DNA of 44,051 nt from sequence record PQ221054; one strand, 5' to 3'. Shown here one piece after another: positions 25,917 through 26,216 of this stretch. The notes beneath the pieces were generated by a model. The model was given only the letters and a program-made list of their open reading frames with translations. It made no database searches and was not told the DNA's origin. Source of the stretch: Escherichia phage Rao1. Every line of letters starts with the position of its first letter. The first letter of the stretch is position 1. The position numbers were made by a program, and so were the translations under genes.

Positions 25917-25945
25917 TAAGGCCCTTAATGGGCCTTCTTGTTAAA
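25917..25945. terminator. Bidirectional terminator
   Basis: GGCCC-TTAAT-GGGCC hairpin flanked by A-run and T-run; overlaps the lipoprotein stop codon. Confidence 0.6.
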
Positions 25946-26110
25946 ACAATATCCAGCTGGTAAAACCGAATAAAGATTTTGATTTACCTCTCCATTGCTG
26001 TATTCACAACCTCTAATTGTAACTGAGTAGTCACTGATAAGAACTATAGTTCTTTCACCGCCTGAACAACCAGCTAAAATCATTGCAGTGATAACGATTA
26101 ATTTTTTCAT
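25925..26110 (-). CDS. Small lipoprotein (61 aa); candidate superinfection-exclusion protein (Llp/Cor-like by position)
   Basis: MKKLIVITAMILAGCSG has a signal peptide and lipobox (LAGC); convergent gene just downstream of the tail-tip locus. Confidence 0.6.
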   Translation of the reverse strand: MKKLIVITAMILAGCSGGERTIVLISDYSVTIRGCEYSNGEVNQNLYSVLPAGYCFNKKAH

Positions 26111-26111
26111 C

Positions 26112-26216
26112 TTAGAACCCTTTAAAGTTGCTAGCCAGCATCAGAAGCCATACGAAGAAACCAGTAGCTGCTACACCGAAGATTGCAGAGATTACGTTAG
26201 TAGTTAAGTTAGTCAT
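26112..26216 (-). CDS. Small single-TM peptide (34 aa), translationally coupled to the lipoprotein gene
   Basis: Hand-translated MTNLTTNVISAIFGVAATGFFVWLLMLASNFKGF; AAGGAA RBS 6 nt upstream; its stop lies 1 nt before the lipoprotein ATG. Confidence 0.35.
   Translation of the reverse strand: MTNLTTNVISAIFGVAATGFFVWLLMLASNFKGF

Follow-up and report, generated by a model that had tools for sequence, protein, structure and literature searches.

The right edge of the receptor-specificity module in a T1-like (Braunvirinae) phage is a two-gene unit, in which a repeated promoter/leader box, a 34-aa micro-protein, a 61-aa lipoprotein and a terminator follow one another in that order. The explanation favored here, at a rough probability of 0.6, is that the unit joins a lipoprotein that would block FepA, the phage's own presumed receptor, to an autonomous inner-membrane micro-protein that travels with the promoter box. 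The window referred to throughout is the whole stretch of DNA that was analysed, 44,051 nucleotides of Escherichia phage Rao1, and the features of the unit and its surroundings are the following:

21350-24706: J-like tail-tip gene, 5' of the 123-aa and 265-aa ORFs
24748..25913, plus strand: receptor-binding locus of two genes, coding for 123 aa and 265 aa, 3' of the J-like tail-tip gene
25908..25936, minus strand: intrinsic terminator, AAGGCCC-loop-GGGCCTT and then a T-run (centroid structure -12.7 kcal/mol)
25925..26110, minus strand: 61-aa lipoprotein precursor gene, its product predicted to be a Cor-like exclusion factor acting on FepA
26112..26216, minus strand: gene for a 34-aa putative single-pass membrane micro-protein, stop codon included
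26240..26251, minus strand: conserved leader CATCGAAACGAA, 3' of the -10 hexamer
26257..26286, minus strand: sigma-70-like promoter candidate, TAAACA, 18-nt spacer, TATTAT (9/12 consensus matches; consensus match only)
26283..26301, minus strand: direct-repeat box AATAGCACTAATTGCTAAA, which also gives the TAG stop of the upstream Rha-like gene
26297-26968: Rha-like gene, its TAG stop supplied by the box

The two genes had been singled out in a first-pass annotation of this DNA, and its description of their layout is confirmed by the ORF listing. A 61-aa minus-strand lipoprotein with an LAGC lipobox and two Cys residues in the mature part does lie after the tail-tip locus, and it is preceded by a 34-aa hydrophobic peptide whose stop is 1 nt before the lipoprotein ATG (26216..26112 and 26110..25925). 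The junction consists of the peptide TAA (26114-26112), a single G (26111) and the lipoprotein ATG (26110). The ribosome-binding site of the peptide is an AAGGA 6 nt 5' of its ATG, and that of the lipoprotein is an AAGGG contained in peptide codons K32-G33, 7 nt 5' of the ATG. Both genes were also said to be downstream of a box promoter, and indeed the box (26301-26283) and the leader are found upstream, the promoter itself being a consensus match only. A stem-loop at 26278-26261 sits in the spacer of the candidate promoter. The lipoprotein gene and the 265-aa tail-tip ORF, which ends at 25913, converge, and the stop codon of the lipoprotein falls within the loop of the terminator, whose hairpin and T-run occupy 25936-25918. 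A search of Rfam over the window returned only a tRNA, elsewhere in the window; a tRNA-Arg (anticodon CCT) is located at 3118-3193 on the plus strand, in an early region of small ORFs.

The repeat box (AATAGCACnAATTGCTAAA) is present in 13 copies in the window versus 0.07 expected. The sites are at 1462, 2379, 10206, 26283(-), 27075(-), 28743, 31475, 32998, 35489, 36560(-), 39039, 43084(-) and 43894(-), and the TAG embedded in the box terminates the upstream gene both at 26297-26299 and at 35491-35493. The leader pattern TATTAT-N5-CATCGAAACGAA (26262-26240 in the unit) is similarly over-represented, with 4 copies in the window versus 0.06 expected, and the leader CATCGAAACGAA is also found 5' of peptide homologues in Klebsiella, Pantoea and E. 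coli phages. An identical 21-nt direct repeat, aaATAGCACnnnTTGnTAAAA, has been described in phage TLS without an assigned role (PMC11447400); no description tying such a box to a mobile first-cistron peptide was found in the literature consulted on the TLS-type repeat.

Several further observations in the window and its relatives touch on the box. It appears to mark module joints at which first cistrons are exchanged. A very hydrophobic 46-aa ORF, MILIGMLTAFFYYATGLTFWVSLGAAIGAYFVSALLALIVIALRNR, lies between tail genes at 13569-13709 on the plus strand, behind a box and leader at 13524-13546; tblastn matches to it were obtained in only four close relatives (TR2, TR3, CY1 and phiA2-1), and it has no NCBIfam entry. 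In both IME253 (L001, 3701-3970) and ZL19 (L004, 3701-3970) an extra 89-aa ORF lies between the peptide box and the Rha/KilA-like gene; the window lacks that ORF, and its Rha-like gene (26297-26968) adjoins the box immediately.

Megablast places the window in the Drexlerviridae, subfamily Braunvirinae. Over 22600-26301, a region that runs from the end of the J-like gene through both receptor-locus ORFs (123 aa and 265 aa) to the lipoprotein, peptide and box, IME253 is 99.97% identical to the window and ZL19 is 97.4% identical, and TR3 and phiA2-1 are 100% identical over the 702 bases compared (25600-26301). Phage IME253 requires FepA and TonB, as demonstrated by knockout and complementation (Li et al. 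2019, PMC6499177, the sole paper for this assignment), and FepA is accepted as its receptor in the BASEL paper. According to the BASEL paper, the locus directly 3' of the J-like gene sets the terminal receptor in Drexlerviridae; this receptor locus is swapped horizontally along with the cognate exclusion protein. The putative target of the lipoprotein is thus FepA, because the module matches that of the FepA-dependent IME253. The tail-tip proteins gave only marginal BLASTP scores against T1 gp32 and gp31 (E=0.011 and 1.3), and therefore only a shared architecture with the FhuA module is claimed, not homology. The 265-aa tail-tip protein had no meaningful match in a sequence search of the Protein Data Bank.

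The lipoprotein (MKKLIVITAMILAGCSGGERTIVLISDYSVTIRGCEYSNGEVNQNLYSVLPAGYCFNKKAH, 61 codons) begins with MKKLIVITAMILAG, which is followed by CSGG. Read from the sequence, its N-terminus (MKK-LIVITAMI-LAG-C15) provides the positively charged start, hydrophobic core and lipobox expected of a lipoprotein signal peptide, with residues 1-14 as signal peptide and Cys15 in the lipobox LAGC. The mature part is 47 aa and contains two further Cys residues (C35 and C55). The residue at +2 is Ser16, not Asp. Under the Lol rule of E. coli, lipoproteins with a +2 residue other than Asp go to the outer membrane, and the Ser next to Cys15 accordingly predicts an outer-membrane location.

The family resemblance of this protein is to Cor. 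Over residues 1-57 of the full precursor it matches PHROG 1119, the Cor superinfection exclusion protein, with E=7e-5; identity to T1 Cor is 42%, and by tblastn the annotated exclusion lipoproteins of Sd1, Sf12, Sadiya and JulesPiccard were recovered at 38-43% identity, at the equivalent position. The mature part alone aligned weakly to the Cor alignment with hhalign (probability 12%, E=0.0023). Its Cys residues, at mature positions 21 and 41, are unlike the Cor pair at mature 9 and 57, and the invariant Cor blocks MPERTCT and NFK.HDC are absent, with only ERT and AGY.F kept. A sequence search of the Protein Data Bank with E up to 10 returned no Llp or Rtp45 chain and nothing meaningful, and there was no match in Pfam, NCBIfam or PADLOC. 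AlphaFold2 run on the single sequence produced a poor model (pLDDT 61.6), with which a Foldseek search of solved structures found nothing below E=0.69; no conclusion is drawn from fold with a model of such low confidence. The protein is 100% identical in IME253, TR3, phiA2-1 and ZL19 and is otherwise rare, with a single 90% cluster, its own, and three contigs among 5.8 billion proteins. Judged by these alignments, the lipoprotein is a divergent Cor-like protein. Its position, its lipoprotein features, the family resemblance and the module linkage together make it probable that this is an exclusion factor directed at FepA.

The other gene of the unit (MTNLTTNVISAIFGVAATGFFVWLLMLASNFKGF, 34 codons) has largely escaped annotation. 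The first-pass annotation had proposed a search of relatives for the peptide, and by tblastn the full-length peptide was found in 159 phage records; the Klebsiella variant is present in 151 records. It is unannotated in IME253, ZL19 and phiA2-1 and a "hypothetical protein" in TR3, and several GenBank records label it "hypothetical protein" or "putative integral membrane protein". Gene callers mostly skip it: an exhaustive search of 1.84 billion representatives yielded one true match, a 51-aa annotation of the same ORF. No significant match was obtained in PHROGs, Pfam, NCBIfam or PADLOC, and a scan of 185,579 bacterial and archaeal genomes uncovered no relative. A metagenome scan added two more loci, both in known contexts. 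No published discussion of the peptide was found in the literature searched.

Residues 8-29 of the peptide are hydrophobic, with a peak 19-residue Kyte-Doolittle value of 2.19, which is consistent with one membrane-spanning helix. The charges flanking this helix are few and variable, and some members of the family have no charged residues. Eight positions (M1, G14, W23, L27, A28, F31, G33 and F34) are invariant in eleven diverse members, and T18 and V24 are nearly so.

The peptide family occupies three genomic positions, always as first cistron behind the same box and leader and always with 0-11 nt to the next start:

Context A, 5' of a Cor-type lipoprotein: the window, IME253, Sd1, Sf12, Sadiya, MM01, JulesPiccard, RobRod40, BUCT-XGG-1 and a metagenome contig
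Context B, 5' of a dam methyltransferase gene: about 126 Klebsiella (Webervirus-type) records and E. coli phage PHB17
Context C, 5' of a small gp14/SH3-like gene that itself precedes the holin: Pantoea phage AAS23, Enterobacter phage Ec_L1 and E. coli phage BrunoManser

A six-frame profile search detected a single copy of the peptide in the window and none in the complete genomes of T1 and RTP; absent from these two phages and dispensable there, the peptide is accessory. Of nine T1-type cor loci from IMG/VR, seven have a different promoter and no peptide, and the two with the box (Sd1 and Sf12) have the peptide as well. The peptide therefore tracks the box, not cor. Judged by this distribution, it is a free-standing gene found across this phage family and not a partner dedicated to the lipoprotein.

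Homology between the window and relatives of the LptD type breaks at about 26204, inside the first peptide codons, and Rtp45 (RTP 27687-27917) and its homologues (L002 2768-3013) start MTNL(I/K) behind the same upstream leader as the peptide. From the position of the break and the shared MTNL and upstream region, the box and first codons behave as the left arm of module recombination. The start shared by Rtp45 and the peptide suggests that module swaps recombine inside the first codons. At 39039-39288 on the plus strand, a box variant (TATAAT...AAATCGAAAACAAC) lies directly 5' of a 57-aa gp14/SH3-like gene (PHROG 4788, E=1e-29); that locus has no peptide, and BrunoManser, AAS23 and Ec_L1 have the peptide exactly there.

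In the favored explanation, the unit would act through two proteins working separately in the two membranes. The host enzymes Lgt, LspA and Lnt would lipidate and cleave the lipoprotein, after which the Lol system would deliver it to the outer membrane's inner leaflet. In that position the lipoprotein would bind the periplasmic side of FepA and stop the phage's own receptor-binding protein from engaging; the model for this step is provided by Llp and Cor on FhuA and by Rtp45 on LptD. As a result, superinfecting phages would be excluded and progeny would be spared sticking to cell debris. The peptide, which would accompany the promoter box and be coupled in translation to the next gene, be it a cor-type lipoprotein, dam or gp14/SH3-like, would insert in the inner membrane as one helix. 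Its conserved small-residue face (G14, T18 and G19), together with the invariant W23 and the F-x-G-F terminus, suggests packing against another membrane helix, and our reading, held with moderate confidence, is of a micro-protein that acts on its own in the inner membrane by binding a further membrane helix from host or phage.

The peptide might instead be an independent second layer of exclusion or of host takeover at the inner membrane, where it would block DNA entry for any T1-like phage or modulate a conserved inner-membrane complex. Such a role would suit an accessory gene, missing from T1 and RTP and with no bacterial homologue, that is strongly conserved across Klebsiella, Escherichia, Pantoea and Enterobacter phages while the lipoprotein diverges with the receptor, and it would also suit a helix-packing type of face in a family with some members that lack charged residues. 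Nonetheless, this reading is unlikely: the peptide has no homology to known inner-membrane exclusion proteins, and its placement beside dam or near lysis genes gives no specific support. A version of it in which the peptide confers receptor-independent inner-membrane protection throughout the Drexlerviridae, as a second layer beneath the FepA-specific lipoprotein, is about as unlikely, but would explain why a near-constant peptide is found beside a lipoprotein that changes with the receptor. Still more speculative is a scheme in which the peptide would be cut after L-A-S, freeing its conserved C-terminal pentapeptide (N/H/S)F(K/N/G)GF to act as a periplasmic signal.

The first-pass annotation had proposed the two genes as a superinfection-exclusion pair. 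The lipoprotein half of that proposal holds up to the extent that the genomic slot, the Cor PHROG, T1 Cor and the IME253 module all point to it; the pair half does not. In a two-component system dedicated to exclusion, the peptide in the inner membrane and the lipoprotein in the outer membrane would act jointly, with the peptide helping the lipoprotein, for example, to reach or lock FepA. The argument in favor of joint action is one of arrangement, in that the peptide is 1-10 nt 5' of the lipoprotein in all 14 of the distinct cor-context loci examined, among them ZL19 and the loci listed under context A, and the coupling is tight in every E. coli or Shigella locus with the peptide beside the lipoprotein, which leaves some room for a functional link in that setting. 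However, other genera have the peptide ahead of dam or a gp14/SH3-like gene, and T1-type cor genes exist without it, so that the claim of a dedicated partner falls, and Rtp45 alone forms a complex with LptDE. Furthermore, the peptides of the window and Sd1 are 88% identical and their lipoproteins only about 41%, which would be unexpected for a co-evolving partner. In N15 and mEp167, cor alone confers exclusion. Joint action is accordingly regarded as improbable.

A role of the peptide in modulating lysis timing or membrane state, as an antiholin-like or depolarising agent, is also improbable. It is in context C that this proposal has some appeal, since the peptide is there two genes 5' of the holin and before the gp14/SH3-like gene recently proposed as a lysis accessory; the gp14-like gene family has been described as a stand-alone SH3 domain (KanT1 paper). 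But the peptide of the window is 13 kb from the holin-endolysin-spanin cassette at 39414-40500, and in Webervirus the peptide adjoins dam.

The preferred reading of the peptide as a membrane protein in its own right presupposes that its amino acid sequence has been selected, and this can be weighed against the proposal that the 34-codon ORF is a mere translated leader that loads ribosomes, its product being functionless or a relic of a lipoprotein signal peptide. Several features would fit a leader. The ORF is always the first cistron and close to the next start, Rtp45 starts with the same four codons (MTNL), and the L-A-S/G-N motif of the peptide resembles a Cys-less lipobox. In addition, codon 32 (26121-26123), which encodes K, N or G, changes in step with where the next gene's ribosome-binding site lies: where it is K (AAA/AAG) or G (GGA), the next start is 0-2 nt away and the site is an internal AAGGG or GGAGGA, and with an external AAGGTGA and a 10-nt gap codon 32 is mostly N (AAC, AACGGT). 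BUCT-XGG-1 and Ec_L1 are exceptions to this co-variation.

Selection at the level of amino acids nevertheless makes the leader proposal very improbable. Pairwise dN/dS for the peptide is 0.1-0.5, and six independent sister pairs show 32.6 synonymous and 25.4 non-synonymous changes (of 58) against a background of 24 synonymous versus 78 non-synonymous sites (102 total; binomial p=5e-8). Nearly all relatives keep exactly 34 codons, including those with saturated synonymous sites; BUCT-XGG-1 (31 codons) and BrunoManser (35) are the exceptions. The invariant G14 and W23 are distant from the junction. At the junction itself, G33 and F34 are retained with varied codons (GGG, GGT, GGC and GGA; TTC and TTT), arguing that the C-terminal F-x-G-F is selected as protein and not as a ribosome-binding site. 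The mRNA is, moreover, less structured than shuffled controls (z=+2.5), which leaves nothing for ribosomes to unmask; coupling by way of an unmasked ribosome-binding site was rejected on this result. By the pattern of substitution, then, the peptide is a genuine conserved protein-coding gene under purifying selection.

The proposal that the lipoprotein is a lysis protein (an Rz1-type o-spanin) and not an exclusion factor draws on a weak match to PHROG 6073 "Rz-like spanin" (E=1e-4) and on tblastn matches with E of 4-9 in Klebsiella phage spanin genes, but is exceedingly improbable and was rejected on the ground that a complete set of holin, endolysin and spanin genes is present at 39414-40500, giving the window its own spanin (PHROG 1804, E=2e-45), and also in view of the spanin matches falling mostly over the signal peptide, the lack of a nearby inner-membrane spanin partner (the neighbours are tail-tip and Rha-like genes) and the situation of the gene in the receptor module.

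If the lipoprotein does block FepA, the principle established for Cor, Llp and Rtp45 would reach a fourth outer-membrane protein, and the enterobactin receptor would have a small natural ligand on its periplasmic side. Such a function, if true, would be useful for receptor prediction, for the design of phage cocktails and for making strains resistant to contaminating T1-like phages. Few unstudied genes of this very widespread phage family are as well conserved as that of the peptide, which is present in more than 120 genomes of Klebsiella Webervirus phages under consideration for therapy and which many annotations miss. Its occurrence behind the same box at three genomic positions suggests that the box is a recombination joint that shuffles first cistrons.

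The parallels with known systems differ for the two proteins. T4 Imm, HK97 gp15 and P22 SieA are phage inner-membrane exclusion proteins that are expressed early and act after adsorption, and they provide, to our knowledge, the only functional analogy for the peptide. They are unlike it in being much larger, with several membrane helices or soluble domains, and no homology between the peptide and proteins of this type was found.

For the lipoprotein, the closest parallel is Cor (of T1, phi80, N15, HK022 and mEp167), an outer-membrane lipoprotein that excludes FhuA-dependent phages. Like Cor, the lipoprotein of the window is small and encoded convergently right after a two-gene locus 3' of the J-like gene, and it matches PHROG 1119 and has the motifs ERT, YSV and (R/P)AGY(P/C)F in common with T1 Cor. 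Indeed, the true Cor proteins of Sd1, JulesPiccard and other Drexlerviridae are preceded by the same 34-aa peptide. Unlike Cor, the lipoprotein has 47 and not 59 mature residues, its Cys positions differ, the similarity of the mature part is not significant, and the linked receptor is FepA and not FhuA.

For the LptD-type locus, the link between receptor and exclusion protein has been demonstrated by structure: the roughly 6-kDa lipoprotein Rtp45 attaches to LptDE from the periplasmic side, distorting loops that the phage needs (PMC12685063; PDB 9RPS). Rtp45 shares with the window lipoprotein the genomic slot, promoter box and leader, and its first codons (MTNL) are those of the peptide. It differs in belonging to an unrelated sequence family (no match), in having no preceding peptide cistron and in being encoded on the same strand as its receptor-binding gene rtp44. 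Llp of T5 (PDB 8A60), a small outer-membrane lipoprotein with a disulfide, acts from the periplasm to lock FhuA, the TonB-dependent receptor of T5 itself, and the mechanism suggested here is drawn by analogy with it; Llp comes from a different phage family and locus and has no detectable sequence similarity to the window lipoprotein. That an exclusion lipoprotein is encoded beside the receptor-binding locus is thus already textbook knowledge, from Cor and Rtp45 in the Drexlerviridae and Llp in T5. What is new here is a divergent Cor-like lipoprotein linked to FepA, with a predicted role, together with an uncharacterised and conserved micro-protein.
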